Assembly (NCBI GenBank): GCA_900290365.1
Contig: OMOE01000167.1
Location: 6,305 to 70,304, forward strand
Reading direction: 5' to 3'
From: Syntrophobacter sp. SbD1
Lineage (GTDB): Bacteria; Desulfobacterota; Syntrophobacteria; Syntrophobacterales; Syntrophobacteraceae
DNA: 64,000 nucleotides
The position numbers and the translations under genes are program-made. Of this stretch, positions 3,943 to 28,776 are shown in pieces; positions within the stretch are counted from its first letter, which is position 1, and every line of letters starts with the position of its first letter. The notes below the pieces were generated by a model. That model was not told the origin of the DNA, did not search any database, and saw only the letters and a program-made list of their open reading frames with translations.

Positions 3943-4285
3943 TGAGCCTATCGTGTGCAAGAGGCTCAGACCTGCTTTCCAAAAAGCGGGCTACGAGGTG
4001 GAAACCTTTACCGACAGCGCTTCCGCTATGGCCAGGATAGAGGAAAAGAAGTTCGATATCATCATTACCGACCTGAAGATGAAGGGCGTGGACGGAATGC
4101 ATTTTCTGGAGCGGATCAAGGAGATTGCGCCCGATACCGGCGTTATAGTCATAACCGGATTTGCCACCTCTGAAACTGCCGGGGAGTCATTCCGGAAAGG
4201 GGCATTCGATTTTGTGGCCAAACCGTTCAAGTTGAACGACATAATCGATACTGTCCGGCGGCTGGAGGGAAATCGGAAGAGATGA
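3884..4285 (+). CDS. Stand-alone CheY-like response regulator receiver domain
   Basis: ILILDDEP ... DIIITDLKMKGVDG ... VIVITG ... VAKPF supplies the acidic pair, phospho-Asp, T/S and Lys positions. GGAGGTG RBS lies 4-5 nt before ATG 3884. The gene overlaps the end of paralogue 1. Confidence 0.8.
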   Translation: MTSQCAGCQQQKTQILILDDEPIVCKRLRPAFQKAGYEVETFTDSASAMARIEEKKFDIIITDLKMKGVDGMHFLERIKEIAPDTGVIVITGFATSETAGESFRKGAFDFVAKPFKLNDIIDTVRRLEGNRKR

Positions 4286-4374
4286 AAGGGTTAGAAATGG
4301 TGGTTCGTACATAAAGACCCTTTTGCGTGATACGAAGAACGCCGCCGCCATGGAAGGCGGCGCTACCATGGTAG

Positions 4375-6897
4375 ATGAAAGTTCCTATGCGCCTTCCGTT
4401 CATCTCACACAGGCGACAGAAGCCTTCCTCCGATCAGGGGCTGGAATGGGTCCGATCCCTGTTTGCAAAATTCCAGCGTATTCAGAAATACAATACCAGG
4501 GCCTTGGAAGTAATGGCCGAAATGGACCGTGCCCTGGGCGGAGAGTACATTTTCGACCGCGCCTTCCTTGAAAGCTCCGTTCGAGAGTTGAGCGGTCTCG
4601 CATACCAGGTTGTCTACAGCCTGAACGCCATGTCGCAGAACGGATACGTCGCTCTCTACGACAGGTATCAAAGCATAAAAGGCGTTCTGGATGACATCCT
4701 TGCCGGGGGACTGGGACCTTTTGGATCGAGTCTTGCCCTGCCGTATTCAGTACTTGGCCTTGAAATGGAGCCTCTGGCGGGGGCCTTGAATGTGTGCCTG
4801 GCCGAGGCGCGAAATCGCCTGGACATTCCCGCCCCCGACGGCTTTGCGGTGACGGTGACCGGCTGCTCGCAAATGATGGCCGCAGGCGGGGGGGATTTTG
4901 ATATTTTTGCTAAACCGGCGTCGCTCGAGGTTGCTGATTTCCCCCCGGAATTGGTCGAGGCGATTAACCACCAGATGGAGTCGCTGTTTGCAAGATGCGG
5001 AGGCCCGGTTCCTCTGATCGTGAGAATCTGTCCGGCTGCCGCAAACAACCAGACCCGGACCGAGACGGTCCGGCTGCCCTCGCAGGTGTTTACCAACGTT
5101 GGCTCCGATGAACTCCTGGAAACCTGCCGAATGGCCCTGGACAAATATTTGGCTTCATCCGAAGGACCCGATCCCGCGCCGGTGGCCCTGGCGGTCCATG
5201 AGGCTGTGCCCGCCCAGGTTGCCGGCTCAATTTCTCTTGTGACTTCGCCCGATTCGCCTTCGGGAGGACTTTTTTGTATAACGGCCTGGCCGGTGGGTGC
5301 GCCTGACAGCAGGGAGACCTTTTTTCTTCGCCGGACCTACCCATTCGATCCCGTTGAATCGGAAATCAAAGCGAAACCTTACAACGAGCGGATCTACCCC
5401 GGTGTGCATCCCCTGTCGATCACGCCAAAAGGCCTCTACAGAGGTTCTGCCCTCCTTGGTCCCTCTTTTCTCAGGGGCATTGCGGCATGCGCCTCGGCTT
5501 TTGAGCGGATTGTCGGCTGCCCCCAGGATCTCGATTGGGTCAGGGGCGATGCCGCGCGGCCGGTTATAGTGAATGTGAGGGCGGCGGGCGAGCTTGACGG
5601 TTCGATGGAGAGCGATTTCGATGCGCCGTTTTCCGAAGAGGAGGATGAGGGAAATTGGGTCGAGGACGCCGAGGTGATGCTTGCCGGGGGTGAGACCGCG
5701 CAGACGGGTATAGCAGCCGGTCCGGTGGTACATGTTCGTGAAAGCGAAATGGATCTGTTCCCCCATGGCGCCGTCGCCGTTGTCAGATATGCATACCCCA
5801 GTTTGAGCGCCATCATGAGCAGGGCTTCCGCTGTAGTGACCGAAATCGGCGCCTCCATCGGGCACCTGGCCACAATAGCCAGAGAACTGCGCATACCCGC
5901 CATCTTTGGCGCCGCAGGGGCAATGCAGAGATTGCCTGAGGGGACCGAAGTCACAGTTGACGCCGGGGAAAAGAGGGTCTACCGGGGGATAGTCGAGCCT
6001 CTGTTGGCCTCCCGGGCAACCGGCACGGAACTGTATCCGAGCGATCCGGAATACGTTACACTCCGCCGCCTGCTGCGCTGGATATTGCCCCTGGAACTCA
6101 TCGATCCTGAGTCCAGTACTTTTTGTGTGGATAATTGCCGCACTTATCACGACGTTATTCATTTTTCCCACGAGAGATCCATTGAGGAACTTCTAAAGAT
6201 CCAGGAGCACGGCGCCGGGCTGAAAAGTCCGTATGTTCGCAAACTCGGGATCGATACGCCGATCGATCTGTTCGTGCTCGATATTGGCGGCGGGGTGTCC
6301 CCGGGGGCCGGGGCTTGTGTGGAATTCGATGACGTCATTTCAAAGCCGTTCCTTGCATTCCTTAATGGGCTGACCCTCAAGGAAGTCTGGAACCGGGACC
6401 CGGGATCCCTCAACCTCAGAGGAATAATCTCCGGGCTTGACCGTACGTTTTCGGCCATGATGGAACTGCCTGAATACGCCGGCAGAAATCACGCAATCCT
6501 GGCGGAAAACTACATGAACGTCGGCCTTCGGCTCGGTTATCATTACAGTGTGATCGACAGCTATCTCTGCGGCAATGTAAATCAAAATTACGTCTATTTT
6601 CGTTTCGCAGGCGGTTTTGCCGATGAGAATCACCGGCGGCGCAGGGCTGAGCTTATAAGGTCTATCCTGGACCAACTGGGCTTCAAGGTGAGAATCAAAG
6701 GCGATCTCGTTCTGGCAAAGCTCAAACTGGTGGACAACCGGGAGGTAATCTCGGCATTAAAGGTCCTGGGAGAGCTTACGGGATTTACCCGGCAGATTGA
6801 TCTTGCGATGGACTCGGAAGATAAAATTGAAGAATTCGCCAGGCTATTCAATGAAAAATCCGGCCGCGCAGGCAAAGAGGAGAAAAACGGTGTCTAG
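4375..6897 (+). CDS. PpsA/PPDK-like paralogue 2 with a degenerate ATP-grasp but an intact swivel His domain and the shared C-domain
   Basis: GASIGHLATIARELRIPAIFG (His codon 5863-5865). C-domain NYMNVGLRLGYHYSVIDSYLCGNVNQNYVYFRFAGG parallels paralogue 1. The ATP-grasp signature positions read PLIVRICPAAANNQ and CPQDLDWVRGDAARPVIVNVRAAG. Confidence 0.75.
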   Translation: MKVPMRLPFISHRRQKPSSDQGLEWVRSLFAKFQRIQKYNTRALEVMAEMDRALGGEYIFDRAFLESSVRELSGLAYQVVYSLNAMSQNGYVALYDRYQSIKGVLDDILAGGLGPFGSSLALPYSVLGLEMEPLAGALNVCLAEARNRLDIPAPDGFAVTVTGCSQMMAAGGGDFDIFAKPASLEVADFPPELVEAINHQMESLFARCGGPVPLIVRICPAAANNQTRTETVRLPSQVFTNVGSDELLETCRMALDKYLASSEGPDPAPVALAVHEAVPAQVAGSISLVTSPDSPSGGLFCITAWPVGAPDSRETFFLRRTYPFDPVESEIKAKPYNERIYPGVHPLSITPKGLYRGSALLGPSFLRGIAACASAFERIVGCPQDLDWVRGDAARPVIVNVRAAGELDGSMESDFDAPFSEEEDEGNWVEDAEVMLAGGETAQTGIAAGPVVHVRESEMDLFPHGAVAVVRYAYPSLSAIMSRASAVVTEIGASIGHLATIARELRIPAIFGAAGAMQRLPEGTEVTVDAGEKRVYRGIVEPLLASRATGTELYPSDPEYVTLRRLLRWILPLELIDPESSTFCVDNCRTYHDVIHFSHERSIEELLKIQEHGAGLKSPYVRKLGIDTPIDLFVLDIGGGVSPGAGACVEFDDVISKPFLAFLNGLTLKEVWNRDPGSLNLRGIISGLDRTFSAMMELPEYAGRNHAILAENYMNVGLRLGYHYSVIDSYLCGNVNQNYVYFRFAGGFADENHRRRRAELIRSILDQLGFKVRIKGDLVLAKLKLVDNREVISALKVLGELTGFTRQIDLAMDSEDKIEEFARLFNEKSGRAGKEEKNGV

Positions 6898-9566
6898 CAT
6901 CGTCGCTCGATTGTTTCAAAAATTGCGCGAGCGGCGGCTGACTCGTGCGGCAAAATTCCTTGACGACCTCAAGGTCCGGTATCACACTTTCCGGATTCTC
7001 CTTGCCAATAATGAGTACTCGCTGGATCTGATGAGGTCGCTTGACCTGTCACTGAGGTCCGGGAGTTCCGAAATGCCGGAGATAGCCGAAGAGCTTCTAA
7101 GCGTCACCTACGAGCTTGTCGACGGTCTGAACAGGCTGAGCGGGGACCGTCACCAAAGACTTTATGAAACGCATTACAGCCTTGCGGGTGCTATCCGCAA
7201 CGAACTGGACGCCATCATGGCGGTCCAGTCCCATGCGCCGGCTTTTGTTTTCCTGGATCATCCGGCAGCCGATCTGCGGGAAGAGGTCGGAGGCAAGGCT
7301 GCCGGCCTGGCCCAGTTGCGCAAGGCCGGCTTTCCCGTTCCTGACGGTTTTGCCGTTACGTCGAACTCCTGCGAGGGAATACTATCGGCCAACGGTCTCG
7401 ATCTTTTTATTCGGCAGAGGGCGCAAAGACTGGAGGCCGGGTACAACCGAGGCACGGACTTCGAGGCTGACGCAGAGGAGATTCGCCTCCGCATTCTCGA
7501 CGCGGTTTTTCCGCAAGACTTCGAACAGGAGCTTCGGCGCGCTTACGAACGGCTCACCGGTTCGGGGGAAACGGCCATATCCGTGCGCAGCAGCGCTTCG
7601 GTCGAAGACCGGATTGAACACTCCTTTGCCGGTCAGTTCAAGAGCATACTTAACGTGATTTCATTCGATGGATTGAAGGACGCGTTAAGGGAAGTGATTG
7701 CAAGCAACTACAGCCCCGGGGCGATTTCCTACCGCCTTCACGCCGGACTGTCCCTGGCCAGGCACGACATGGCCGTTTTATGTCAGCGGATGATCCGGGC
7801 AGAGTCGGCAGGGATACTGTTCACTATAGATCCGGCAGACCCGGAAAACGGGCGGATGCTTATCAGCGCCGTTCCCGGGCTGGGAATAACGGCCGTGAGC
7901 GGGAGCGCTCCGGCGGATCTCTACCGGCCCTCGAGGGAACCAACAGACGCAGGCCCGATGGCGGATTGGGCGCAAGTTGCCAAAAAGACCCACCGCGCTG
8001 ATCCCGGGTTTAATGGAGGCATCGAGGAGCGGGAGCTTCCCGAAAATGAACAGGTCCTCCCCGTGCTTTCCGAGGACCGGGTCCACTCCCTCGTTAGCAT
8101 CGGCCGCCGGATCGAAAGCCTGGTCGGAAAACCGCAGGATATCGAATGGGCATTTTCGCAGGAAGGCGAGCTTGTGATCCTGCAGTCAAGGGATATCCGG
8201 CTTGCCCTCAAAAGCAGGCAGGCAGCGGAGGCTGCGCGGGGAGAAGTCCTTCTTAGAGGAGGGGTATGCGCCTCGCCGGGCCGGTGCGTGGGCAAGGTCA
8301 AAGTAGTTCATTCGACCCGTGATTTTGAGGACTGGCGTAAAGATCCTTCACGCGAGCCGGGTATCCTGGTGCTTCCACAGAGTATGTCGGATGCCGCAGG
8401 CTTCGTCCCGGAATTCGAAGGCGTGGTTGTGGATTTGGGCAACCCTGCCGATCACCTGGCCGTAACGGCAATTCGAAGGCGTGGTTGTGGATTTGGGCAA
8501 CCCTGCCGATCACCTGGCCGTAACGGCTCGGGAGTACTCCCGTCCGATGATGACCGGGGCCGGTAAGGCGACCCAAACGCTTCGGGACGGCCAGTGGGTT
8601 ATCCTGGACGCGGACATGGCCATGGTCTTCAAGGCCCCCGAGGAGGCCTGGTCGGCCGCCCAACGGGTTGGCAACGCTAATATGGAAGGCGGTTCGCAAA
8701 CCCGCAGGGCCGGGCGCAATGTCGCCTCACGCCCAGAGGCAGCCCGGCTCAGACAGTTGATCGAGCCTTTGAATCTGACCGACGCATACGGGCCAACGTT
8801 TTCCATACAGGAGTGCCGCTCTCTGCATGATCTGATCCGCTATAGCCATGAAATGGCTGTCCTGGCAATGTTCCAGACCGGAGACGACATCCTGGAGTCG
8901 GCGGAGGTGCTGGTGCGGCGACTCGAGGGCGCCGTACCGCTGCATTTCCTGATTATCGATCTGGGCGGCGGTATCGCTTCTGAAAGTAATAAGTTCAGGG
9001 TCCGGCTTGAAGATATCCTGTCGCTCCCCATGCTGGCGCTCTGGAAGGGGATACTGACGCCGGGGCTCAGATGGAACCTGCCGCCCCCCGCAGCCATGGT
9101 TTCCGGGCTCATGTCCCGATCCATGTTCGACTCGGGCAGCGCCAGGCCCATCGGCCAGCAGAACTACGCCTTGATTACACGGGATTATCTGAATCTGAAC
9201 GCGCGCGTTGACTATCATTTCGCCATGGTTGACGCGGTTTGCGGATCAAATCCGAGAGAGAACCATATCCGTTTCAGGTTCAAGGGGGGCGGGACGACCG
9301 CTGTGCAGCGCGAGCGGCGTGCGCTGTTCATAACCGAAGTGCTCGAAGCGAACAATTTTTTTGTAGACCAGCGGGGCGACCTGGTGACTGCGTCCATCCT
9401 GGAAACACAGCAGTCTGAAACCGAGGACCGGCTTGTCATGCTGGGAAGGCTGCTCGGATTTAGCAGGCTGCTCGATGCGACCATGCGCGACGACACCGTC
9501 CACAAAAAAGTGGCGCGTGCGTTTATTGATGGCGATTATGCGCTGACAACAGTGGGTCAGGAGTGA
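6890..9566 (+). pseudogene. PpsA/PPDK-like paralogue 3, split into two ORFs (to 8566, and 8481-9566) by a 58-bp tandem duplication
   Basis: VRSSASVEDRIEHSFAGQFKSILNV, PQDIEWAFSQEGELVILQSRD, GNPADHLAVTAREYSRPMMTG, and C-domain DYLNLNARVDYHFAMVDAVCG..NHIRFRFKGG. A GTG at 6890 overlaps the stop of paralogue 2 (GTGTCTAG), with GAGGAG 7 nt upstream. Deleting one 58-bp copy joins the frames (frame arithmetic checked) into one ~872-codon ORF. Confidence 0.8.
8412..8527. repeat. Perfect 58-bp tandem duplication (8412-8469 = 8470-8527)
   Basis: Read directly: aattcgaaggcgtggttgtggatttgggcaaccctgccgatcacctggccgtaacggc occurs twice with no mismatch and exactly 2.0 copies. The flanking bases differ. Confidence 0.97.
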
Positions 9567-10222
9567 TAGAAACGCATCCTGGGCAGTTCTACGGCAGTGA
9601 GCATGTTTCCGTAGGCCGCCCCCGTGTCGATGCCGATCTTGCCTGGCGCAACGAAAGGCGTCTCGAAAGGGGTGTGGCCAAAGACGGTTACCTCGCTTGA
9701 AGTGCTTTCGTCTTGTAAAAATATGTCCCGCACGCTCAGGAGACGATCCAGCGGGCAGTGCTCGAGGTCCTCTCCGGGTATAGTCCCCGCGTGGACAAAA
9801 AGATAGCCGCCCAGCCTGAAGTGTGGCTGGAGCCTTTCGAGAAAACGGATATGTTCGACCGGCATAAAGGATAAATCCCCCAGGGATCGAACCGGGGCGT
9901 TCGAGTAGCTGTTCAGGGTATCCTCCACACCGATGGATCGAAGCGTTCTCAGATAATCGAGATTGCCCGTGCGGGAATACTCCAGCAAAGCATGTTCGTG
10001 ATTTCCCATCAGGAAAACCGTGTTTCGAACCTTTCCCCCTGTCTTCAGAAGATAATCGATCACCTCACGCGATCCGGTTCCCCTGTTAATGTAGTCCCCG
10101 AGAAAAACCAGGTAATCCTTCTCCGGATCGATGGGCAACCGCTCGATCAGAGAGGTGAGCTTTCGATTGCAGCCGTGGATGTCGCCAACCGCGAATATCT
10201 TCTGTTCCGCAAAAAGGTTCAT
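9557..10222 (-). CDS. Calcineurin-like metallophosphoesterase (PrpA/ApaH-type Ser/Thr phosphatase or Ap4A hydrolase family)
   Basis: Motifs GDIHGC, GDYINRG, GNHE and VHAG in canonical order. The 3' end overlaps the stop of paralogue 3 by 10 nt (convergent). Confidence 0.85.
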   Translation of the reverse strand: MNLFAEQKIFAVGDIHGCNRKLTSLIERLPIDPEKDYLVFLGDYINRGTGSREVIDYLLKTGGKVRNTVFLMGNHEHALLEYSRTGNLDYLRTLRSIGVEDTLNSYSNAPVRSLGDLSFMPVEHIRFLERLQPHFRLGGYLFVHAGTIPGEDLEHCPLDRLLSVRDIFLQDESTSSEVTVFGHTPFETPFVAPGKIGIDTGAAYGNMLTAVELPRMRFYHS

Positions 10223-10230
10223 CGGGACCT

Positions 10231-10300
10231 TCGAGTTTTGAGTTTCGAGTTTTGAGTTTTTAGTTAGTCAACTCAAAACTGAAAACTGTTGAAAACTGTT
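10231..10300. repeat. Intergenic low-complexity block: 14-bp x2 (10231-10258) and 10-bp x2 (10281-10300) arranged as an imperfect palindrome
   Basis: tcgagttttgagtt x2, then aactcaaaactgaaaactgtt gaaaactgtt on the other arm. Lies directly upstream of the phosphatase start. Confidence 0.8.
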
Positions 10301-10475
10301 CATATGGTGTATTCGCCCCGGAAACATACAAGGTTCACTGAGGGGCGCATCGAAATATCAGTATATCCCAGACTACAAGCGTTCCCTACTCGTTTCTTTG
10401 TCCCTTCACCCCGCTTCGCTCGTACCCTTCGCGTTCTTCGTGACCAAGCTCTTCTTGCCCCGACCGACAAGACCA

Positions 10476-11051
10476 TCAGATTCTCATCGTCACATCGCGG
10501 CTCCATGTCTGACGGTACTGGGCAGCGGCCTGCTGCGCTACGGTGGCGTCTTCGATCTTCCCCCCGGCTGCAAGCTCACCTGCAAGGACAAATGGAATGA
10601 TATCGCTCAATTCCACGATAAAGGGAGTAAGATCGGTCATGTGCCGTTGGGCCATCGAGGCGATTTGGGTTTCATCGAGGGCCAGCGCCGTCGTTTGCAG
10701 CATCCCGTAGCTGATGACCGCCATATTGAGTAAAGTGTAATCGTCCCTGAGATTTTTTGAAACCGGCTCATTTGATCTAAGTTTTCCGTAGATGTTCGCA
10801 AAAGATCCCACAACCGATGTTGCCGCCTTCTTCAGCCTGGCTTCAAAATTCCCATCGAGTGTTGACAGATTTCGTTCAAGTTCGGCTACATGCGTTGTTA
10901 ACGCCGCATCGATTCTTTGAAGGGCTCCCAGGGCATTGTTAAACTTCCTTAGTCGTTCATCGTGGACCTGGCGCTCGATGCGTTGAAGGGCAAGTTGTTC
11001 GACGCCCAGCATATCGGCCAGATTTTCCCGAAGTACTTCCGATCCCGTCAT
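10476..11051 (-). CDS. Hypothetical all-helical protein, possibly ferritin-like (DUF892/YciE-type)
   Basis: GGAGG RBS 6 nt before the ATG. The helical pattern resembles YciE-like proteins, but the match is weak and by eye only. Confidence 0.45.
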   Translation of the reverse strand: MTGSEVLRENLADMLGVEQLALQRIERQVHDERLRKFNNALGALQRIDAALTTHVAELERNLSTLDGNFEARLKKAATSVVGSFANIYGKLRSNEPVSKNLRDDYTLLNMAVISYGMLQTTALALDETQIASMAQRHMTDLTPFIVELSDIIPFVLAGELAAGGKIEDATVAQQAAAQYRQTWSRDVTMRI

Positions 11052-11507
11052 TGCAGACCTCCAATGGTTATTCTTCTATTTTGGCTAATTCATTCGAATT
11101 ACAGACATTTGTTTTGTAATTTAAGCAGCTTTGCGCAAAAGGAAAGCAGAGGGGCAGATCACCGTATCCCACTCGAATGAGAATTTCTCGCGCGAAGGCG
11201 CGATTGACAACCCGGCCGCAACCCATCGATTCGTTCGAGGGGCCACGGTCGATCTTGAGCCGCGAAGAGGGAGCCCAAATCAATATCCTTGTGCCCCCCT
11301 TCATTGGGTTTGAGAAACTCAATTTTTCTGTCGCTAAATCAGAACAGCTTAGAGTCGCCTTTGAGGAAATCGCTCCGCCCTTATTGAAGCCCGCAGCCCC
11401 CCTTCGTTTACAATAGCCTACATATAATTACCTTAAATTAAACGGACTTGGCTGTCTCTGCCGTCAATGGGACAGTGTAAACGTTAACCTCCAGGGAGGG
11501 TACTTCG

Positions 11508-12017
11508 ATGTACAGCAAAGTTAAAATCATGGGACACCCAGTTCATCCCATGCTGGTGAATTTTCCGATCGCCTTTTACGTCTCGACCCTGATCGCGTTC
11601 ATTATATACAGCATTTTCGGCGACCCATTTTGGTTCTGGGTAGGTCTTGCGGCAAACTTCGCCGGAGTTGCGATGGCGTTTGTGGCGGCCACTTTCGGGT
11701 TTATCGACTGGACGTTCGGCATTCCGTACGGGTCGGCTGCTAAGGATACCGGCGCAAAACATATGTTGCTCAATATTGTTTCGCTCCTGTTGTTCATAAC
11801 CTGTTTGATCCTAAATGCCGGCCAGTGGAATGCTATTCTACCGGTTGCCAGGGGGATCGTTATCTTACCTCTGTTTGGGGTAATTTTGACAATCGGCGCG
11901 GGCTATTTCGGGTGGACGCTGGTGCAGAACCATCACGTCGGGGTTGAGTTCTCGCCCGACGAAGAACGCTGCATAAGTGAATCGCGATCCGCTGGATTTA
12001 CCAGAGACACGGTGTAG
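11508..12017 (+). CDS. DUF2231 domain membrane protein
   Basis: N-terminal GHPVHPMLVNFPIAFY signature, four predicted TM helices, GGGAGGG RBS. Confidence 0.75.
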   Translation: MYSKVKIMGHPVHPMLVNFPIAFYVSTLIAFIIYSIFGDPFWFWVGLAANFAGVAMAFVAATFGFIDWTFGIPYGSAAKDTGAKHMLLNIVSLLLFITCLILNAGQWNAILPVARGIVILPLFGVILTIGAGYFGWTLVQNHHVGVEFSPDEERCISESRSAGFTRDTV

Positions 12018-12147
12018 GCTTGAGTGCACAATGTAATCTATTTATTTTCAACGACAGAGGCATTAATTTTGTCTGACGTTCCCATAACGAGGGGGACCTG
12101 TGGCGAAAGCATTTTCGGCAGTGGCAATTCAGAAACTGTAAAACCAA

Positions 12148-13803
12148 ATGAGCCTCTCTCTAGATGCCAGACATTTGAAACGTTACAGGGAACTTGCCGG
12201 ATTTCTGATCAAGTACGGGCGCTCAGATATATTTTTTCGGGCCGGGCTTGAAAAAGTGCTCGATGAACAGCCTGCTGCCGAAAGGGTCAGCCCCGGGGCG
12301 GAAGAGCTTCCCAAAGACCTGGAGAAGATGGGTCCCACATACGTAAAACTGGGGCAGTTCCTTTCCACCCGCTCCGATCTGCTGGAGCCCCAATATATTG
12401 AAGCCCTCTCTCGCCTTCAGGACAGAGCCGAATATTTTTCTTATGAGAAGGTCGAGTCAATTATTACTTCCGAGCTGGGGCTGCCCGTAGCCAGGCTGTT
12501 TTCCTTTTTCGACAAGACGCCTCTTGCCGCCGCTTCCCTGTCGCAGGTCCACCGGGCTATCCTTCTTGACGGGCGCTCCGTGGCCGTAAAGGTCCAAAGG
12601 CCCGGCATCCGCGATCAGATAGCCCTGGACCTCGATGTGCTCCTCGAGTTGGCCGGATTTCTGGACAGACATATCGACGTGGCTAAGAGGTTTATGCTCC
12701 AGGAGACCATCGAGGAATTCCGAAAAGCGCTTGTCCAGGAACTCGATTTCAAGGAGGAAGCTCAGAACCTGGTGATACTCTCGGAGAACCTTGAAGAATA
12801 CGAGAAAATTGTGGTGCCGTTGCCCGTCCATGCCTATACTACCTCGAAAGTGCTCACCATGGAACATATCCGAGGGCAAAAGATTACAAGCATACATCCC
12901 CTTGGCAGGCCTGAAATCAACGGGCACGAACTTGCCGATGAGCTGTTCAGTGCGTACCTCAAGCAAATCCTTATCGATGGGTTCTACCACGCCGATCCGC
13001 ACCCCGGAAATGTGTTCCTGACTGACGATGGGCGTCTGGCATTGATAGATTTGGGTATGGCCGCCCGCATCTCCGACGGTATGCAAAAAAAGCTTCTCAG
13101 GTTCACCCTGGCTATAAGCGAGGGCAAAACCGATGAGGCCGTCCAGTATGCGATTGAAATCGGCGAAAAGACCCCTGCTTTTGACGAGCAGGCCTTTGGC
13201 AAACAGGTGCAGGAATTCATAACGCGCTGGCAGAGGATTAGAATCGGGCAAATGGAGATCGGCCGGGTCATCCTGGAGGTGCTCAAAGTGGCGGGAACCA
13301 GCGGTTTTCGTTTCCCGGCCGAACTGGCGATGCTCGGAAAGTGCATGCTAAATCTCGACAATATCGGCCGAACTCTGGACCCGGCATTCGATCCGAACGC
13401 GGCTATCCGCAGGCATGCCGGAAAACTCTTAAGGCAAAGGCTTTTAAAGAGGCTGTCGAGCGCCACCCTTTATAAAATGGCCATGGAGTCGGAAGAACTG
13501 GCTGAAAATTTCCCTCAAAAGCTCAGAAAGATAATCGACATCTTCGCCGACAACGATTTCAGGGTCGGCGTCAATGCTATTGATGAAAAATACCTCATGA
13601 GGATGTTCCAAAAGATCGCCAACCGCATTGCGATCGGGATTATAATAGCGGCCATCATTATCGGGGCAGCAATACTAATGCGTGTGGAAACCCCCCGGTT
13701 CACGCTTTTCGGGTATCCAGGGCTGGCAATAATTTCTTTTCTCATTGCCGCCATAGGGGGACTTATATTCGCAATCGTAATGTTGATAAAAGACGAAAGG
13801 TAG
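12148..13803 (+). CDS. ABC1/UbiB (AarF) family atypical kinase with C-terminal TM helices
   Basis: GPTYVKLGQFLSTRSDLLEPQYIEALSRLQD, AAASLSQVHRA, VAVKVQRPG, HADPHPGNV and IDLGM. Confidence 0.85.
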   Translation: MSLSLDARHLKRYRELAGFLIKYGRSDIFFRAGLEKVLDEQPAAERVSPGAEELPKDLEKMGPTYVKLGQFLSTRSDLLEPQYIEALSRLQDRAEYFSYEKVESIITSELGLPVARLFSFFDKTPLAAASLSQVHRAILLDGRSVAVKVQRPGIRDQIALDLDVLLELAGFLDRHIDVAKRFMLQETIEEFRKALVQELDFKEEAQNLVILSENLEEYEKIVVPLPVHAYTTSKVLTMEHIRGQKITSIHPLGRPEINGHELADELFSAYLKQILIDGFYHADPHPGNVFLTDDGRLALIDLGMAARISDGMQKKLLRFTLAISEGKTDEAVQYAIEIGEKTPAFDEQAFGKQVQEFITRWQRIRIGQMEIGRVILEVLKVAGTSGFRFPAELAMLGKCMLNLDNIGRTLDPAFDPNAAIRRHAGKLLRQRLLKRLSSATLYKMAMESEELAENFPQKLRKIIDIFADNDFRVGVNAIDEKYLMRMFQKIANRIAIGIIIAAIIIGAAILMRVETPRFTLFGYPGLAIISFLIAAIGGLIFAIVMLIKDER

Positions 13804-14053
13804 CACGAAAGAAAACATCATCGTTTACCAAACAGGTTTAGCTTGCGCAGTTTCCCCTTTTCATTTTTTTGCAGGTGTTTTAGTATCTTTCCGGGATAAA
13901 ATAGTTATGTTGTGTTTGTCAGTTCGAGTTGATTTGGGCTCAAGTGGGCTTGTCCAGCGGACTCTGCGCCCGAGCTAAGGCAGGTTCGCTTCTCATATCA
14001 AAATAGTAGTGCGGATATGGGAAGGTTGTCGTTACTGAAAGGAGATTTGTTTA

Positions 14054-14398
14054 ATGATTCACATGTCAGAGAAAGCCGAAACTGTTTTGCAGGATTATTT
14101 CAAGGAAAAGCAGATCACTCCGATCCGGATATTCCTCCAGACCGGTGGCTGAGCGGGTCCATCCCTTGCAATGGTTCTGGACGAACCAAAAGAAACTGAT
14201 GATGTTTATAAGCTGAACGGCTTTACCATGCTGGTCGATAAGGACCTTCATGAGAAGACCAAGGATATTACAGTCGATTATGTATCCTACGGGATGGGTT
14301 CCGGCTTCCGGGTGGCATCGGAAATCCCGATTGCAGGCGCCGGCGGAGGCGGGGGCCCCGTCGTGCAGTTGCTAGACAGGACCAAGGTCCGAGGGTAA
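14054..14398 (+). CDS. HesB/IscA-like protein with an in-frame UGA at 14150-14152 (candidate selenocysteine)
   Basis: GAAAGGAG RBS 8 nt before ATG 14054. Reads MIHMSEKAETVLQDYFKEKQITPIRIFLQTGG-TGA-AGPSLAMVLDEPKETDDVYKLNGFTMLVDKDL..., so the UGA sits where the family has the Cys of GGC.G. The downstream 75-aa ORF (14171-) is in the same frame and has no RBS of its own. Confidence 0.6.
14153..14185 (+). promoter_or_regulatory. Possible bacterial SECIS hairpin immediately 3' of the UGA
   Basis: GUCCA...UGGAC and CCAU...AUGG pairings are possible within gcgggtccatcccttgcaatggttctggacgaacc. Not folded computationally. Confidence 0.3.
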
Positions 14399-14410
14399 AG
14401 AACGAAGATC

Positions 14411-14446
14411 AAGGGTGGGCACTGTTTTCAGTGCCCACCCTTTTTT
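14411..14446. terminator. Bidirectional rho-independent terminator between the convergent HesB-like gene and sodC
   Basis: aagggtgggcactg-tttt-cagtgcccaccctt followed by ttttt; perfect 14-bp stem. Confidence 0.85.
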
Positions 14447-14470
14447 GACTTTACTCTTAACGTGTTCGAG

Positions 14471-15007
14471 TTACTTCACAATTCCGATGACGCCGCAAGC
14501 TGCTCGCGCGCCTGATCCGCCCGTCGGTTGGGTTTTGAAATCATCGGCCCCGGCATGAACGATTACCGAACGGCCTATTATCGATTCCGGCCCTGCGAGC
14601 CTTATGAGATTATCTGTTACTTCAAGTGTGGCCACGCCGTTTTTGTCTGCTTCGATGTTGCCCAGATCGCCGACGTGACGCATTTTGGAATTCGGACCTG
14701 CGTGGGGCATATCAGTGGGATTGAAGTGACCGCCTGCGGAATTTGCGTCGGGCGAAGTGCAGTTTCCAAACTCGTGAATGTGAAACCCGTGCGGACCAGG
14801 TGACAGGCCCTCAATGCTTGCCATGATTCGAACCCCGCCTGCGTCCTTTTTAAAGCTCACAACCCCATGTACTTTGCTGCCTTCCGTAGGGTTCATAACG
14901 GCGACCGCCTGTGTAACTTCAGATTCGGCAATCTTTCGGGAACATCCGGTAAGGGCCACCCCCAAAATGAGTCCTGAAAGCAGCACACCTTTGACAATTT
15001 CTTTCAT
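14471..15007 (-). CDS. sodC: Periplasmic Cu/Zn superoxide dismutase (lipoprotein signal)
   Basis: LTGCS lipobox, HGFHIHEFGNC, GGHFNP, HVGDLGN and GGSGARAACGVIG. Confidence 0.92.
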   Translation of the reverse strand: MKEIVKGVLLSGLILGVALTGCSRKIAESEVTQAVAVMNPTEGSKVHGVVSFKKDAGGVRIMASIEGLSPGPHGFHIHEFGNCTSPDANSAGGHFNPTDMPHAGPNSKMRHVGDLGNIEADKNGVATLEVTDNLIRLAGPESIIGRSVIVHAGADDFKTQPTGGSGARAACGVIGIVK

Positions 15008-15220
15008 CTTCCTCCTCCTGATTTAGCGAAAAATTTGATTATGAAATAATTTCTTCTGGATCAAATAAGATCAAATAGTTCAAATGGGAGGGAAAGTAAA
15101 ATTTTTGGATGAAAATTCCAATCAAAAAGTGGTAACTATGCCTCCAAACGGGATTAAGGACAAAGGTCCACAAAAAAATTGGTCACGAAGAACGCGAAGG
15201 GTACACGATCGACAACCCGT

Positions 15221-15344
15221 CCGCATTCCGCCGACCTGTTCGAGGGGCGAACCCTCACCTTGTTCGGGTTCCGCGTTAAACGCCGCATTCCGCCGACCTG
15301 TTCGAGGGGCGAACCCTCACCTTGTTCGGGTTCCGCGTTAAACG
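15221..15344. repeat. Perfect 62-bp intergenic tandem duplication (15221-15282 = 15283-15344), with a degenerate partial third unit near 15390-15420
   Basis: ccgcattccgccgacctgttcgaggggcgaaccctcaccttgttcgggttccgcgttaaacg occurs twice with no mismatch. Confidence 0.95.
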
Positions 15345-15605
15345 TTCGAACCTACGTTAGACGCTTATAGTTCGGCGTCTGATCTTAAGCCCTCACTTCG
15401 TTCGGACTTCGCGTTAGCCATTGCTGAGCGCGTTTAAATGCTTCAAGCTTGGCGTCCGATCTTCTGTGAGGACGCGTGAGGACGCATGGTCGATCTTGAG
15501 GCACACAAAGGGGAAATCTTTTGAAATTGATACGAATTATTTTTCAATTTCTTCATGCTCTTCGTGTATCCTCCGTGCTCTTCGTGTCCAAAAAAGGAAC
15601 TTGAG

Positions 15606-16094
15606 ATGGCCAATTCAAAAATCAAGGGAACAGCACTATTTTTCATCCTGGCAAGCGTCCTGGCCGCACTCGATCAGCTTTCGAAATACTACATCGTCTG
15701 CGCTATTCCCCTGAACACCGGGATCAATGTAATCCCCGGGTTTTTTAATCTGGTTCATGTTCATAATTCGGGGGGGGCTTTCAGTGTTTTTGCCGGTTCG
15801 GGATATCCCTGGAAGAGGTATCTCTTCATTGGCCTGACAGTGGTGGTGGTGGCCGCAATAGCCTACGCTTACGGCAAAACGGGTAAAAAGGATAACTGGA
15901 CCCGAATCGCATACGTATGCATTGCCGGCGGGGCAATGGGGAACCTGATCGATCGGATTAGATTAAGCGGCGAAGTTGTCGATTTTCTGGATATCTACGT
16001 TGGGAAATGGCACTGGCCGGCCTTCAATGTGGCCGACGCCGCCATTTCTACGGGCGCGGTAATGCTGCTGGTCTCGCTTATGAGAAAAAAGTAA
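15606..16094 (+). CDS. lspA: Lipoprotein signal peptidase (signal peptidase II)
   Basis: FFNLVHVHNSGGAFS, GNLIDR, VVDFLD and WPAFNVAD. ATG 15606 with an AAGGA RBS; the upstream part of the listed ORF runs through repeat DNA. Confidence 0.9.
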   Translation: MANSKIKGTALFFILASVLAALDQLSKYYIVCAIPLNTGINVIPGFFNLVHVHNSGGAFSVFAGSGYPWKRYLFIGLTVVVVAAIAYAYGKTGKKDNWTRIAYVCIAGGAMGNLIDRIRLSGEVVDFLDIYVGKWHWPAFNVADAAISTGAVMLLVSLMRKK

Positions 16095-16149
16095 GGGCCA
16101 TAAAAGATTTTGTCGGATTTAACAGAGCCTGCCCCGGACTCGATCCGGG

Positions 16150-16284
16150 GGATTTACAGGATTAAGAGCAAAAGAATGGAAAATCAGGGCAGGGCCTTTT
16201 TTGACAGGATTTACAGGACTAAGAGCAAAAGAATGTCGCGCGGGCCTTGCAAAACAGTTTGTTTTTAATCCTGTAAATCCTGTC
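16150..16284. repeat. Dispersed word-repeat family copies (GGATTTACAGGATTAAGAGCAAAAGAATG x2, then the inverted TAATCCTGTAAATCCTGTC)
   Basis: Same words as at 38139-38167, 39340-39367 and 46436-46464. Confidence 0.8.
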
Positions 16285-16288
16285 GAAG

Positions 16289-17002
16289 TTATTTATTTTC
16301 GGTCTTTTTGGCCAGCTTTACAGTGAACTCCCTCGGGGACCTCTTTCTTGAAAGCCTGTCATAGATTTCCTGCTGAATTACAAGACGATCGCTAAGGATC
16401 TGCGTGATGACTCCGCCGTGCTCTCCGGCCGGCGTTCCTATGCTGACTATATACCCCCTGCCGGTGGAATCCTCGATGACTGCCCTGCTGCCGAGCTGAC
16501 CCCAGGTAATCGCCTTGAGTCCTCTTTCGATTTCACTCATGGTCATTTTTTGCAAAGGCGTCAATGCAAATCCGGCCGAATCATCCCCCTCTTCAGGCGA
16601 GTGCCCCTGGGCTGTTGTTTCTAAATTTACGAAAGGGACAAATGGATCGAGCGCCTTTACCGACACAAAGGTAAAATCGGGGGTCATCAGGGCTGAGGCT
16701 GTTTTATGTACCAGAAGTGCGTATTCCGGCGAACAATTCATTGAAGCGGCCCCGGGCTGGGGTGCAGACACATCGGGCGCCTGCGGCACAGTCGTTTGAT
16801 CCGTAGCCTGCTGTGCCGGTTGGGCCTGCTGTGCGCCTCCCTCAGAAACAGCAGATGGATTGGAAGCGGCCTGGTCAGTGCTCTGCCGGGCCTGCTCCTG
16901 GGCTGCTGAAATGGAAAAATTCAAAGCCGCCGCTGCAAGCAGCAGGACAATGATAAGATAAAAATGGCGTTCGATTGCTTTTCTCCCAAGAGGCGCTTTC
17001 AT
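16289..17002 (-). CDS. Secreted/anchored protein with a Q/A-rich linker and a PilP-like C-terminal domain
   Basis: N-terminal TM/signal. The C-terminal block MSEIERGLKAITWGQLGSRAVIEDSTGRGYIVSIGTPAGEHGGVITQILSDRLVIQQE resembles the PilP/GspC HR beta-domain pattern. Alternative start at 17053. Confidence 0.5.
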   Translation of the reverse strand: MKAPLGRKAIERHFYLIIVLLLAAAALNFSISAAQEQARQSTDQAASNPSAVSEGGAQQAQPAQQATDQTTVPQAPDVSAPQPGAASMNCSPEYALLVHKTASALMTPDFTFVSVKALDPFVPFVNLETTAQGHSPEEGDDSAGFALTPLQKMTMSEIERGLKAITWGQLGSRAVIEDSTGRGYIVSIGTPAGEHGGVITQILSDRLVIQQEIYDRLSRKRSPREFTVKLAKKTENK

Positions 17003-21056: not shown

Positions 21057-21360
21057 GTGCCATCTTTGCCGAATCGCCTAAAAAGGTCATCGGATTAACT
21101 TTGTGGCGTATAGGCCAGTGTGCGGATAGTGGTGGAAGGTTATAATGAAGGACACTTATTGCCGCAGAGCGGACAATTTTTGTCACTACCTCGGAAAACC
21201 TCACGAAGAGCGTGCGCAGAATACGAGGTACGAATTTTGCTAGGTATATACCCATCATAATGAGATATTTACCCGAGCCGGCCCCGAAAGAGCCAGCGCA
21301 AGGATGGTCCCAGCAGGATCTGCTCTGTATGGTTTCGTGAAAAATTCAAGGACCCGACAA

Positions 21361-22428
21361 ATGAATATCTTTGTAAACATAAGTCATCCTGCCCACATGC
21401 ATTTTTTTAAGAATGCAATGAGGATACTCTCGCAAAGAGGGCATCGCGTGCTCGTTGGCGCAAGGATAAAAGAATTCACACTTCAATTGCTGAACGAAGC
21501 CCATTTTGAATACAAAACTTTGACAAAAAAAGGAAAAGGGCCCTTGGGTCTTGTTAAGGAATTAATTGAACAGCAGATAAAAATAATGGGAATAATCCGT
21601 AAAACCCCTGTGGATCTCATGCTTCAGATAAGCGGCATATTCAATGCCCCGGTTGGCAAGTGCTGCGGGATTCCGACGCTCGCGTTTTCAGATACCGAAA
21701 ACGACAAATTGGCTAATCAGGTATCTTTTTCACTGAGCAAGCACGTGATCTCCCCCACCTGCTTCAACCATGGTGCGGGGGGATCGTGGGCCAATCAGGT
21801 CCACTATCCAGGGTATCACGAACTGGCTTATTTATCACCTCGCTATGCCCCTGAAGTGGGACGGCCGCACGACAGATTCCTCCTTCGCTTTGTGGGCTGG
21901 GGGGCCGGTCATGACATAGGGGAGAAAAGCCTTTCAATCGAATCGAAAATAGAACTCGTCCGGATATTGAGCCGGTTCGGGTCGGTCCACATCTCTTCCG
22001 AAGCACCCTTGCCCGAGTCCCTGGCAAATCTGGCTTTCAAAATGCATCCATCAAAGATCCATGATTTTATGGCGACATGCAAACTGATAGTAGGAGAATC
22101 CGCCACCATGGCTTCGGAAGCTGCCTGCCTTGGAATCCCGGCCATTTTTATCTCCAACACCGGTAGAGGCTATACGACCGAGCAGGACACCAGATACGAT
22201 CTGGTCAGGCATTACCGCCTGGACCAGTGGCAGGAGATATCGCAGAGAGTGGAGGAATGGGCACAACGAGATCTTTATGAGGAATGGCAGCAAAAGCGCC
22301 GGAAAATGTTGAGCGACAAGATAGATGTTACTTCCTGGTTGGTCGACCTTGTGGAAGGCTACCCGGGAAGCATCGTGGATGCGAAAAGAGGGCATTTCGA
22401 AGAGTACCGAATTAAGTTTGCGGTTTAG
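21361..22428 (+). CDS. DUF354 family protein (GT-B / UDP-sugar epimerase-like fold)
   Basis: MNIFVNISHPAHMHFFKNAMRILSQRGHRVLVGAR matches the DUF354 N-terminal signature (HPxHVHFFKN). Confidence 0.7.
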   Translation: MNIFVNISHPAHMHFFKNAMRILSQRGHRVLVGARIKEFTLQLLNEAHFEYKTLTKKGKGPLGLVKELIEQQIKIMGIIRKTPVDLMLQISGIFNAPVGKCCGIPTLAFSDTENDKLANQVSFSLSKHVISPTCFNHGAGGSWANQVHYPGYHELAYLSPRYAPEVGRPHDRFLLRFVGWGAGHDIGEKSLSIESKIELVRILSRFGSVHISSEAPLPESLANLAFKMHPSKIHDFMATCKLIVGESATMASEAACLGIPAIFISNTGRGYTTEQDTRYDLVRHYRLDQWQEISQRVEEWAQRDLYEEWQQKRRKMLSDKIDVTSWLVDLVEGYPGSIVDAKRGHFEEYRIKFAV

Positions 22429-22481
22429 CGGAAGATTTTGGGCAGGGCGGTTACGATTCTCTAATAAGAAATTATGAACCT

Positions 22482-23645
22482 ATGTGCGACGTTTTCAAAA
22501 TATTGACGGGCGTGCTGGATGCGGCTCACGAAACCGATTACAGCGGATTCAGTAAATTTGACGCCCTGAATAGCCCTTTTCTCAATACCTTATCTTTCAA
22601 TAACAAGTGGCTGCGATTGGCATTCACACAACTTGTAAAAGAATCGCCCATAAACTTCAGACCCTTATTAAGGGTTAAGAAATCCAGGAACCCTAAGGGG
22701 ATAGCGCTATTTGCCGGTGCATATCTGTCTTTGTACAAAACAACAGGTATTGTGAGATATCTCGACCGGGCCGAGGACCTTATCGGATGGCTCCTGGAAA
22801 ATCCCAGTTCCGGCTATCGCCATCTTTGTTGGGGTTATAATCACATTTGGCAAAATACCATTTTCCTTCAGGGAATGTATGAACCTAACGCGGTAGTGTC
22901 CATATTCGCAGGTGAGGCGCTTTTGTGCGCTTACGAAGCTACAGGAAATAATCGGTATCTCAGCGCCGCCCGTTCCGTGGCCGATTTTATACTCTTCGAC
23001 TTGCCCGTCCTTTATCATTCCGGTGATGAACGAGCGATTGCGTATGTACTAAAAGAGGTTGACGCCGTTGTTTTGAACAACCAGGTCCTTGCAGGGGCGT
23101 TTTTGGCCAAACTTTGGAGGCACACGGGTGAACGCCACTTAATCGAAACAGCGCGCCAACTTATCAACTACACCGTCAATCGGCGAACGGACTACTACGC
23201 CTGGTATTATACATACCCCAGGGAAAAATCCAGGATCACGCATGACAACTACCATACCGGCGGTATCCTTGACGGCTTGGTCGAGTACTACGAACACACC
23301 GGAGACGACAGATATCTGGCAGTCTATTGGCGTGGCCTGGATTACTACCAGGCTAATCTGTTCGAACCCGATGGCAGCCCGAGATGGATGAGCGACAGAA
23401 AATATCCTTTTGATATACATGGTTCCGCTCAGGGCATCATTTCTTTCAAGAAAGCATCCCGCCACGACCGCAGGTTCCTCCCCGAAGCCGAAAAGATTGC
23501 GGGCTGGGCCGTTGCGAACCTGTATCGTGAGGAAACACGTGATTTTGCCTACCGCAAGGGCAAATGGTTTAAGTGGAATTATTCCTTGATGAGGTGGTGC
23601 AACGCCTGGATGGCAAGATCCCTGGCTTTTTCGCTCGAAGGTTGA
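22482..23645 (+). CDS. Hypothetical protein, aromatic-rich, possibly an alpha/alpha-toroid sugar-acting enzyme
   Basis: Uninterrupted 387-codon ORF in an operon-like series. I recognise no diagnostic motif. Confidence 0.55.
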   Translation: MCDVFKILTGVLDAAHETDYSGFSKFDALNSPFLNTLSFNNKWLRLAFTQLVKESPINFRPLLRVKKSRNPKGIALFAGAYLSLYKTTGIVRYLDRAEDLIGWLLENPSSGYRHLCWGYNHIWQNTIFLQGMYEPNAVVSIFAGEALLCAYEATGNNRYLSAARSVADFILFDLPVLYHSGDERAIAYVLKEVDAVVLNNQVLAGAFLAKLWRHTGERHLIETARQLINYTVNRRTDYYAWYYTYPREKSRITHDNYHTGGILDGLVEYYEHTGDDRYLAVYWRGLDYYQANLFEPDGSPRWMSDRKYPFDIHGSAQGIISFKKASRHDRRFLPEAEKIAGWAVANLYREETRDFAYRKGKWFKWNYSLMRWCNAWMARSLAFSLEG

Positions 23646-23649
23646 CAAA

Positions 23650-25587
23650 ATGTGCGGTATTGCTGGTTTTTTCTATTTTTCAGGGCGGAGTCCGGATAAT
23701 GCGGCCGGTCTGCTGCACGGCATGTCGGACCTTATGAAGCATAGAGGACCTGACGGCCAGGGTCTGTTTTCGCAAAACGGAGTTGGACTGGTGCATCGCC
23801 GGCTTGCCATAATAGACCTCCAAACGGGAAATCAGCCGATGGTCTCTGCCGATGGCCGCCTCCAGGTTGTTTATAACGGCGAGATTTACAATTACCGGGA
23901 CCTGCGCCGCCAGCTCGATTCATACCCGTTTCGAACCCGCAGTGACACTGAAGTCCTGCTTGCAGCCTACGAACGGTGGGGCGAAGATTGCTTCAAGATG
24001 CTCAATGGCATTTTCGCTTTTGCCTTGTGGGACTCCGGTTGTCGTCGGTTGCTCCTTGTCCGTGACCCTTTTGGGGTAAAACCGCTCCATATTCACATCA
24101 ACAAGGACAGGATAGCCTTTGCATCGGAGATCAAATCCATCCTGTCGCTTCCGGATGTACAGGCGGAGGTGGACTACCAGGGTCTCCATGATTTTATGAA
24201 TGTTCGCTATGTTCCGGGGGCGGGCACGCTGTTCGCGGGGATCTCCCGGCTCGAACCCGGGCATACTATTTCGGCGGATGAACGTGGGACCAGGAATCGA
24301 AAATATTTCGATTTTGAGCCGCGCGTGGAAACCGGTGTAAGTGAAGGGGAATGGTGCGAGCGAATCGTATCGGCCACAAAATGTGCGGTGAAAAGACAAC
24401 TCATGTCTGATGTCCCGTTAGGGGTCTACCTCTCGGGGGGATTGGATTCGGGCACGCTGGTAGCTATGATGCATGCTTTGGGGGCGCCTGAAATTCTGAC
24501 TTTTTCGTTGGGTTTTAACGAACCGACCGATGAGCTCGGGGATGCGGCAATTGTTGCCAAACACTTCGGAACGGATCATTTCCCCTTGCTGATCGATCCG
24601 GAGCCACTGAAGTTCATGGATAAAGTCCTCTGGCACGTAGAGGAGCCCCAGGTGAACATGCTGCAGGGCTACATAATGGCCGAACATGCGGCAAAAAAGG
24701 TCAAGGTGGTGCTGGGAGGCCTGGGGGGAGATGAATTGTTCGCTGGTTATGTTACAAATATTTACCTCAAGAATTCCCGTTGGGGCCGTCAACTAACCCC
24801 CAAATGGCTCCAAAACACGGTTCTATCACCGCTATCGCGGTCGGCTTATCGCCTGGGGTCTCGTTTCGATTTAAAGTGGGAGGAGTTCCGGAGAGGAATC
24901 CAGTTGCTCTGTGCGGCAGGTGCTCCGGAGCGATTCTACGCAATCTTGCGAAACGTATGGGACTATGATCCGGAAGTGTCCCGCTCGCTCTACGGGGAGC
25001 GGATGATCTCACGTGAACACCTCTCGGTGGTTCGACACTTCGATCCCCATTTTCGCCATGGCGTCAATTCGGACACACTTACCGATTCGCTATGGCTCGA
25101 ATTTAATACCAAAATGATTGACGACTTCCTGCTGTCGGAAGACAGGGTCTCCATGGCGCATGGGCTCGAATCCCGCGTGCCCTTCCTCGATCTCGATCTG
25201 GTGAAGCTGGCGTTTTCGATTCCGGTCAAGCTCAAGATGCGCGGAAACGAAACGAAGTCTCTTTTCCGGAAGGCTATGAGCGCCTATTTGCCCGAACCGA
25301 TCCTGAACAAAAAAAAGTGGGGGTTTTCTTTCAACCCATACTATCAATTCCAGAAAGACCTGAAAATCGCAATCCAGGAACGATTGACTCCACAGACGGT
25401 AAAGGAGCTTGGATTCTTCAATTACGAGTTCATCGAAAAGATCTTGAAGCATCCTCCTCATCCAAGGCTCCGGTGGCATTATTTTATGTTGTGGGTCATG
25501 CTCGGATTTCACCAATGGCACGATATTTTCATAAAGAAAAATGGATTTCGGAACTGTTCCCTGGAGATTACAGGCAATAGCCGATAA
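23650..25587 (+). CDS. Asparagine synthase (glutamine-hydrolysing) family amidotransferase
   Basis: N-terminal MCGIAGFF nucleophile, HRGPDG, and the YLSGGLDSG PP-loop. Confidence 0.9.
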   Translation: MCGIAGFFYFSGRSPDNAAGLLHGMSDLMKHRGPDGQGLFSQNGVGLVHRRLAIIDLQTGNQPMVSADGRLQVVYNGEIYNYRDLRRQLDSYPFRTRSDTEVLLAAYERWGEDCFKMLNGIFAFALWDSGCRRLLLVRDPFGVKPLHIHINKDRIAFASEIKSILSLPDVQAEVDYQGLHDFMNVRYVPGAGTLFAGISRLEPGHTISADERGTRNRKYFDFEPRVETGVSEGEWCERIVSATKCAVKRQLMSDVPLGVYLSGGLDSGTLVAMMHALGAPEILTFSLGFNEPTDELGDAAIVAKHFGTDHFPLLIDPEPLKFMDKVLWHVEEPQVNMLQGYIMAEHAAKKVKVVLGGLGGDELFAGYVTNIYLKNSRWGRQLTPKWLQNTVLSPLSRSAYRLGSRFDLKWEEFRRGIQLLCAAGAPERFYAILRNVWDYDPEVSRSLYGERMISREHLSVVRHFDPHFRHGVNSDTLTDSLWLEFNTKMIDDFLLSEDRVSMAHGLESRVPFLDLDLVKLAFSIPVKLKMRGNETKSLFRKAMSAYLPEPILNKKKWGFSFNPYYQFQKDLKIAIQERLTPQTVKELGFFNYEFIEKILKHPPHPRLRWHYFMLWVMLGFHQWHDIFIKKNGFRNCSLEITGNSR

Positions 25588-25636
25588 ATGAAAATGCGGG
25601 ACGGTTCAGTCCTGAAATCGTTAAGGAAGGCGGGAC

Positions 25637-27218: not shown

Positions 27219-27235
27219 GAGTCTGTAATAGATAA

Positions 27236-28741: not shown

Positions 28742-28776
28742 AATATTCACACCTAACTTTATTGTGACATTTTATC

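Follow-up and report, generated by a model that had tools for sequence, protein, structure and literature searches.

The window, by which we mean the whole 64-kb stretch of DNA analysed, carries on its forward strand a short gene that is interrupted by an in-frame TGA (Table 1). A Shine-Dalgarno-type sequence lies 9 nt ahead of an ATG at 14054-14056, from which 32 sense codons run up to 14149; codon 33 is the TGA, in the context IRIFLQTGG-UGA-AGPSLAMVLDEP, and past it the frame of the ATG stays open until a TAA at 14396-14398. The original prediction, made from the letters alone, had described this layout, and the ribosome-binding site (RBS), the start codon, the 32 sense codons, the TGA and the open frame are all present in the sequence. 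It had also stated that the gene was missed by ORF calling and that the downstream segment has no RBS. Both statements were borne out: for this locus the list of ORFs holds just a 75-aa piece (14171-14398) starting at ATG 14171, and on reading the sequence this piece lacks an RBS of its own.

Table 1. Coordinates of features at the interrupted gene, in window positions.
Feature	Position	Strand	Basis
Ribosome-binding site GAAAGGAG	14037..14044	+	Sequence reading
Start codon and 32 N-terminal sense codons, MIHMSEKAETVLQDYFKEKQITPIRIFLQTGG	14054..14149	+	Translation, conservation in 80 loci, profile cutoffs
UGA, codon 33, predicted Sec; motif U-A-G-P	14150..14152	+	TGA/Cys column, alignment to IscA Cys35
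Codons 34-101 in the family frame (AGPSLAMVLDEP...IPIAGAGGGGG)	14153..14356	+	Translation, ORF list, homologues
Predicted SECIS-type hairpin GGUUC-UGGAC-GAACC	14173..14187	+	75-sequence alignment, RNAalifold, invariant synonymous sites
Junction of frame-shifting 8-bp deletion (GGCTGTTC)	14356..14357	+	BLASTN against contigs L081-L084
Remnant of native C-terminus, now in the +1 frame; stop TAG 14373-14375	14357..14375	+	41-aa ORF, comparison with L081-L084
Out-of-frame tail PVVQLLDRTKVRG; stop TAA 14396-14398	14357..14398	+	Translation; found in no homologue
Intrinsic terminator, 14-bp stem and T-run, common with convergent sodC	14411..14447	+	Terminator scan and sequence

The gene is monocistronic, having its own RBS and a terminator in common with a convergent Cu/Zn superoxide dismutase gene (sodC). 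It is preceded by a gene for an ABC1/UbiB-type kinase, and lspA is found beyond sodC. The grouping of ABC1 kinase, sodC and lspA is kept in close relatives only and offers no operon or synteny clue to function. A second copy or a Cys-containing paralogue was not found in the window. Three other candidates for TGA-interrupted genes, each beside a real gene, have upstream parts that look non-coding, and none is convincing.

Elsewhere in the window, three tandem paralogues on the forward strand (1291-9566; individually 1291-3942, 4375-6897 and 6797-9566) match the PPDK_N and PEP-utilizer mobile domains without a match to the PEP/pyruvate-binding domain, and a response-regulator receiver ORF is located at 3818-4285. 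A co-oriented cluster at 21304-30382 (+) encodes a DUF354 protein, a GH88-like protein, an asparagine synthase, two SAM methyltransferases, a B12-binding radical SAM enzyme, a hexapeptide acyltransferase and an LPG_synthase_TM protein, and may be a cell-envelope or glycan modification locus. On the reverse strand, a c-di-AMP riboswitch (RF00379, 102 bits, 53466-53595) is the sole Rfam match in the window, and an amino-acid permease family gene (51434-53296) lies downstream of it.

Profile searches recognize the interrupted gene only when both of its parts are read together. With UGA translated as Cys, the read-through product matches PF01521 (Fe-S_biosyn) over residues 2-90 at 31.6 bits, above the cutoff of 26.3, and either half of the product alone falls under it. 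The NCBIfam model NF038090 ('IscA_HesB_Se') returns 111.1 bits for the read-through product, or 111.7 bits once the tail is repaired as described below, against a cutoff of 85, and 56.2 bits for the 75-aa ORF alone. The 32 N-terminal codons are required for the Pfam and NCBIfam matches to clear their cutoffs; hence the locus is one gene and not two, as the original prediction of an IscA/HesB-family gene, with UGA at the first ligand Cys and cut in two by ORF calling, had proposed. The classic HesB-like selenoprotein model TIGR01911 ('HesB_rel_seleno') stays below its cutoff of 66.35 at 45.8-46.3 bits, and the NCBIfam equivalogs for IscA, SufA and ErpA score 18-33 bits against cutoffs of 117-181. 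The window reads U-A-G-P at the UGA, which corresponds to UxGP, the motif listed for HesB-like selenoproteins (PMC13188914). From its profile scores, we place the locus as a relative of the TIGR01911 subfamily that is a member of the NF038090 branch instead.

The 92 relatives returned by a protein search fall into three sets. About 10 are full-length with Cys at the column of the UGA (FLQTGGCAGQSLAMVLDEP), five are nominally 'full-length' with Trp at this column, and about 75 are fragments of 62-70 aa beginning MVLDEP, a pattern that betrays ORF callers halted by the UGA. Scanning one genome for each species yielded 382 tblastn-confirmed loci. The 80 retained for analysis belong to metagenome-assembled genomes (MAGs) of Syntrophobacteraceae, Desulfobacterales and allied groups and to isolates, namely Desulforhabdus sp. 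TSK, Desulfoferrobacter suflitae and Desulfacinum hydrothermale, all three with the TGA form. Gene calls in related sequences repeat the split, with a 32-aa gene called in L085 and genes of 62-70 aa called elsewhere. Upstream of the TGA, the residues P, I, R, F, L, G and G are invariant or nearly so across the 80 loci and wobble positions have entropies of 1.3-1.9 bits; conservation of the protein alongside free third positions places these 32 codons under coding selection, and their status as coding sequence, on which the original prediction depended, is confirmed.

At the column itself the codon is TGA in 74 of the 80 loci, TGC in three and TGT in three; the window brings TGA to 75 of 81, and TAA or TAG occurs nowhere at this column in the 80 loci or the window. 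The column aligns to Cys35 of E. coli IscA (PDB 1s98, 1r94), in A-type carriers the first of three conserved cysteines that ligate the cluster (Cys35, Cys99 and Cys101). Since the exact column is either TGA or a Cys codon throughout, the in-frame TGA at 14150 is far beyond chance. The placement of the UGA at a cluster-ligand Cys thus agrees with what had been predicted, and the proposed alignment with Cys-containing homologues supplied six loci in its favour. Six database proteins were flagged in the course of this comparison: P0001, P0002, P0007, P0048 and P0074 have Trp in place of the Sec codon, a wrong-code artefact, and P0018 is frameshifted. Apart from its W, P0007 matches the L031 product exactly, and the DNA of L031 reads TGA.

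The 75 UGA forms (74 loci and the window) were aligned downstream of the UGA in search of a SECIS element. RNAalifold recovers a single helix, pairing columns 33-37 with 43-47 around a loop UGGAY. In the window the stem GGUUC/GAACC comprises 14173-14177 and 14183-14187, the loop UGGAC comprises 14178-14182, and a sixth pair, U14172-A14188, is present; the hairpin begins 20 nt, and its loop 25 nt, past the UGA. Standard pairs occupy 375 of 375 pair cells, none of 500 column shuffles reached the observed hairpin score, and control registers slid by one to three columns gave only 12-52% pairing. Pair 35-45 covaries (U-A in 43 sequences, C-G in 31, U-G in one), coupling a non-synonymous change from Val (GUU) to Ala (GCU) with a synonymous change from GAA to GAG at Glu, although this covariation concerns one pair and largely splits two clades, and so represents few independent events. 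The degenerate third positions 14176 and 14179, inside the hairpin, are invariant in 75 of 75 sequences (entropy 0.0), against 1.6-1.9 bits at the remaining four-fold degenerate positions up to about 20 codons away. The stem is broken or the invariant sites altered in five of the six Cys forms and in none of the 75 Sec forms (Fisher p = 2e-7, a statistic that ignores phylogeny), L033 being the sole Cys form that keeps all five pairs. This decay is in agreement with the SECIS-like remnant structures published for HesB-like selenoproteins after Sec-to-Cys conversion (PMC1794560).

The bacterial SECIS (bSECIS) model specifies a loop of 3-9 nt, a stem of 4-16 bp, a distance of 16-37 nt from UGA to loop, a G at loop position 1 or 2 with G or U as the next base, and a minimum free energy no higher than -7.5 kcal/mol (PMC13188914). 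The hairpin has a loop of 5 nt, a stem of 5-6 bp, a spacing of 25 nt and a G at loop position 2 followed by G. Alone it folds at -6.9 kcal/mol, slightly short of the threshold; the version in Desulfobacterales reaches -9.1 kcal/mol, and a segment of 43-51 nt around the window hairpin reaches -11.5 to -11.7 kcal/mol only with an extra mini-hairpin on its 5' side (14153-14169 in the minimum free energy fold), which we rejected as unconserved, being 60% paired across the alignment. Folding 14150-14200 as a single sequence, the check suggested originally, gave -11.5 kcal/mol and a z-score of -0.76, no better than shuffled sequences and uninformative alone. The helices named in the original prediction did not withstand the alignment. 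GUCCA/UGGAC and CCAU/AUGG can each form in the window, but their variable pairs are broken in 12 to 48 of the 75 sequences, and they compete with the conserved hairpin; pairs 18-41 and 21-38 of the former are lost in 48 and 20 of 75 respectively, and it would use the conserved loop as a stem arm. Neither helix shows covariation or does better than its shuffled controls. The Rfam scan of the window found no family at the hairpin site. On the strength of its conservation at the RNA level, the predicted SECIS is GGUUC-UGGAC-GAACC at 14173-14187.

Taken as a whole, 14054-14375 is predicted to be a monocistronic IscA/HesB-family (A-type carrier-like) selenoprotein gene of the NF038090 branch with Sec at its UGA, a reading to which we assign a probability of about 0.92. 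Two other accounts of the UGA were weighed. Were it an ordinary stop, the locus would be a dead gene or a pair of small ORFs encoding a 32-aa peptide and a 75-aa protein from ATG 14171; gene callers do split the homologous loci in this way, and TGA is the commonest stop in the window, ending 17 of the 41 Pfam-supported genes counted. A truncating stop, however, would not remain TGA at one column in 75 genomes from two orders and never become TAA or TAG, nor would it alternate with Cys codons alone or leave purifying selection on both of its flanks. The lack of an RBS and of a family match for the 75-aa piece, and the conservation of an RNA hairpin in TGA forms only, point the same way, and we regard this account as extremely improbable. 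Nearly as improbable is a selenium-free read-through of the UGA, whether a near-cognate or suppressor tRNA inserts Trp, Cys or Arg or the code has been reassigned. The five database proteins with W at the column would favour this account, as would the absence of Sec-machinery genes from the window. The W entries, however, are translation-table artefacts, as the TGA in the DNA of L031 indicates, and the use of TGA as an ordinary stop by 17 of 41 well-supported genes means that the code is standard and the recoding local to this site. The alternative residue in homologues is, moreover, always Cys at the position of a ligand Cys, the hairpin fits the bSECIS model in four of five criteria, and the family includes a protein confirmed through 75Se labelling, the HesB-like selenoprotein of M. 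maripaludis, which was identified by labelling and mutagenesis (PMC11097638) and is the one member for which incorporation of Sec is known.

Neither selA, selB, selC nor selD was found in the 64-kb window: the 49 ORFs scanned against Pfam contain no SelA, SelB or SelD domain, and a search aimed at tRNA-Sec detected no tRNA in the window or in 60 related loci. We infer the Sec machinery of the organism from its lineage, Syntrophobacter fumaroxidans having SelD and 31 selenoproteins, one of them HesB-like (PMC1794560). Translation would start at AUG 14054, and the hairpin would recruit SelB carrying Sec-tRNA(Sec) at UGA 14150, so that Sec would be inserted at position 33, the counterpart of Cys35, the first cluster ligand of IscA. 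The native protein ends in a flexible Gly-rich linker bearing a C-x3-C-x-C motif, whose cysteines may, by analogy with Cys99 and Cys101 of IscA, act as the other ligands. Predicted uses of such a centre would be the binding or transfer of an Fe-S cluster or of iron, or redox chemistry of the Se/S centre.

The 3' end of the gene departs from its family. In its homologues a Gly-rich stretch leads into a terminal Cys-rich tail, for example GGGGCSPSCSC and a stop, which is in frame in 80 of 80 loci. The window copy ends GGGGGPVVQLLDRTKVRG before its stop, and its last 13 codons, PVVQLLDRTKVRG, lie outside the family frame and occur in none of the homologues. The expected ending is found in the +1 frame, where C CCG TCG TGC AGT TGC TAG encodes (S)PSCSC and a stop, and a listed 41-aa ORF accordingly ends APSCSC. 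Contigs with exactly the SodC or ABC1-kinase protein of the window were found in JGI metagenomes 3300032160, 3300010379 and 3300000567 and in Logan run SRR6193119; four of them, L081-L084, extend over the 3' end of the gene. BLASTN of window 14000-14470 against these four contigs gave zero mismatches and one 8-nt gap: relative to the four otherwise identical contigs, the window lacks the 8 bp GGCTGTTC after 14356. The native protein has 109 aa and ends GGGGGGCSPSCSC, with a C-x3-C-x-C tail. Taken literally, the sequence of the window gives a product of 114 aa whose last 13 residues are nonsense and which has lost all three tail cysteines. The Gly-rich linker and in-frame C-x(2-3)-C-x-C tail of the family are therefore absent from the window copy and present in L081-L084, a defect of this copy that leaves the family assignment untouched. 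An exact database look-up of the 75-aa product of the window returned no record, as would be expected of a tail that only the assembly of the window contains. The native C-terminus does not correspond to 14357-14398, since in the native frame the protein closes with CSPSCSC, at TAG 14373-14375. The selenoprotein reading of the original prediction thus stands, and its location of the SECIS and its acceptance of 14357-14398 as the native 3' end do not.

The window was compared with contigs from the same population over about 11 kb (approximately 5499-16671), and zero mismatches and three indels were found, all three of them in the window. Besides the 8-bp deletion after 14356, these are a 58-bp tandem duplication at 8412-8527 (2.0 copies, 100% match) and an intergenic tandem duplication of about 62 bp at 15221-15344, between sodC and lspA, relative to L081 and L082. 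The 58-bp duplication splits a PPDK_N/PEP-utilizers gene into overlapping ORFs (6797-8566 and 8481-9566), and the otherwise identical Logan contig L086 has one 58-bp copy and an intact gene of 885 aa. A 1-nt gap that the alignment shows near 8469 arises from an edge effect where the duplicated copies join, and is no separate indel.

In the form given, without its tail cysteines, the copy in the window might be a dead allele. The occurrence of several indels without any SNP over about 11 kb suggests that the three are assembly or consensus errors, and we consider it probable that the 8-bp deletion in particular is an error of the assembly of the window rather than an inactivating mutation. It is conceivable, if rather unlikely, that the population has a real selenoprotein gene of which the window holds a genuine, recent loss-of-function variant without two or three of the ligand cysteines. 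The deletion is, after all, part of the sequence supplied, slippage is a natural source of small tandem duplications and deletions, and the frameshift of P0018 in the same G-rich tract indicates that the tract may be prone to indels. Strain divergence is, however, normally richer in SNPs than in indels, yet about 11 kb match contigs from three or four other samples without a mismatch and three indels are confined to the window, two of which hit otherwise conserved genes; the tail, moreover, is in frame in every homologue. On either account of its origin, what is newly seen here is an 8-bp deletion that frameshifts the tail, by comparison with four independent metagenome contigs.

HesB-like selenoproteins have been known since 2004-2006. 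Eleven bacterial examples were already listed in 2006, from Syntrophobacter fumaroxidans, Desulfovibrio, Geobacter and others (PMC1794560); the type is also described from Syntrophus, Geobacter sulfurreducens, Alkaliphilus, Symbiobacterium and Methanococcus maripaludis. With these proteins the window gene has in common the PF01521 fold family, predicted Sec at the first conserved Cys, the UxGP motif, Cys homologues that include Sec-to-Cys conversions with decaying SECIS remnants, and an occurrence in anaerobic deltaproteobacterial lineages. It differs from the TIGR01911 type in that its NF038090 branch has a long Gly-rich linker and a C-x3-C-x-C tail.

Among A-type carriers (IscA, SufA and ErpA), the structures compared were E. 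coli IscA (1s98, 1r94), the [2Fe-2S] form of Thermosynechococcus IscA (1x0g) and Aquifex AQ_1857 (1nwb), and the domain of the window gene aligns to this group at E = 4e-6 to 1e-3. The native family has a C-terminal Cys pair, like Cys99-x-Cys101 of IscA, although the tail is a poly-Gly linker followed by C-x3-C-x-C rather than the C-G-C-G of IscA, SufA and ErpA. Unlike these proteins the window gene has a predicted Sec for the first Cys, and it is monocistronic and lies outside isc, suf and nif operons. Its hairpin resembles bacterial SECIS elements (the E. coli fdhF type and the bSECISearch consensus) in lying within the coding region just past the UGA, in the small size of its apical loop, where a second G comes directly after the G at position 2, in its stem of 5-6 bp and in the 25 nt between UGA and loop; unlike them, it is very short and lacks a conserved lower stem. 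Its sequence is almost invariant across two orders, and its recruitment of SelB is a prediction.

In a neighbour-joining tree the Cys forms lie on long branches nested within Sec clades in two or more places, in agreement with published work in which Sec-to-Cys conversions were counted for HesB-like selenoproteins (PMC1794560). In two MAGs a Sec form occurs beside a Cys paralogue that evolves faster (L007 and L024 in JBMFHI01; L010 and L030 in JBMFWU01), and each of these could be a Sec/Cys isoform pair. Selenium-dependent switching between Sec and Cys isoforms is known in Methanococcus. A speculative extension, which we think improbable, would make the Sec/Cys paralogues a bacterial counterpart of this switching in an Fe-S-carrier-like protein, and the 15-nt hairpin a minimal, portable SECIS used across two orders, with, as a lesser alternative, a real deletion and a natural tail-less allele in the window.

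In terms of biology, the window gene adds nothing new to the known family of HesB-like selenoproteins; its significance lies with annotation and with the alignment. The locus should be annotated as one gene with a Sec codon and not as a 75-aa hypothetical protein, and some 75 database clusters of the subfamily are truncated in the same way, with five more mistranslated with Trp. The three indel-type defects in the source assembly are relevant to any other finding made from the window. Finally, the alignment of 75 genomes offers a clean and well-controlled example of a predicted bacterial SECIS, in which RNA-level constraint on synonymous sites is seen together with decay of the hairpin after Sec-to-Cys conversion.
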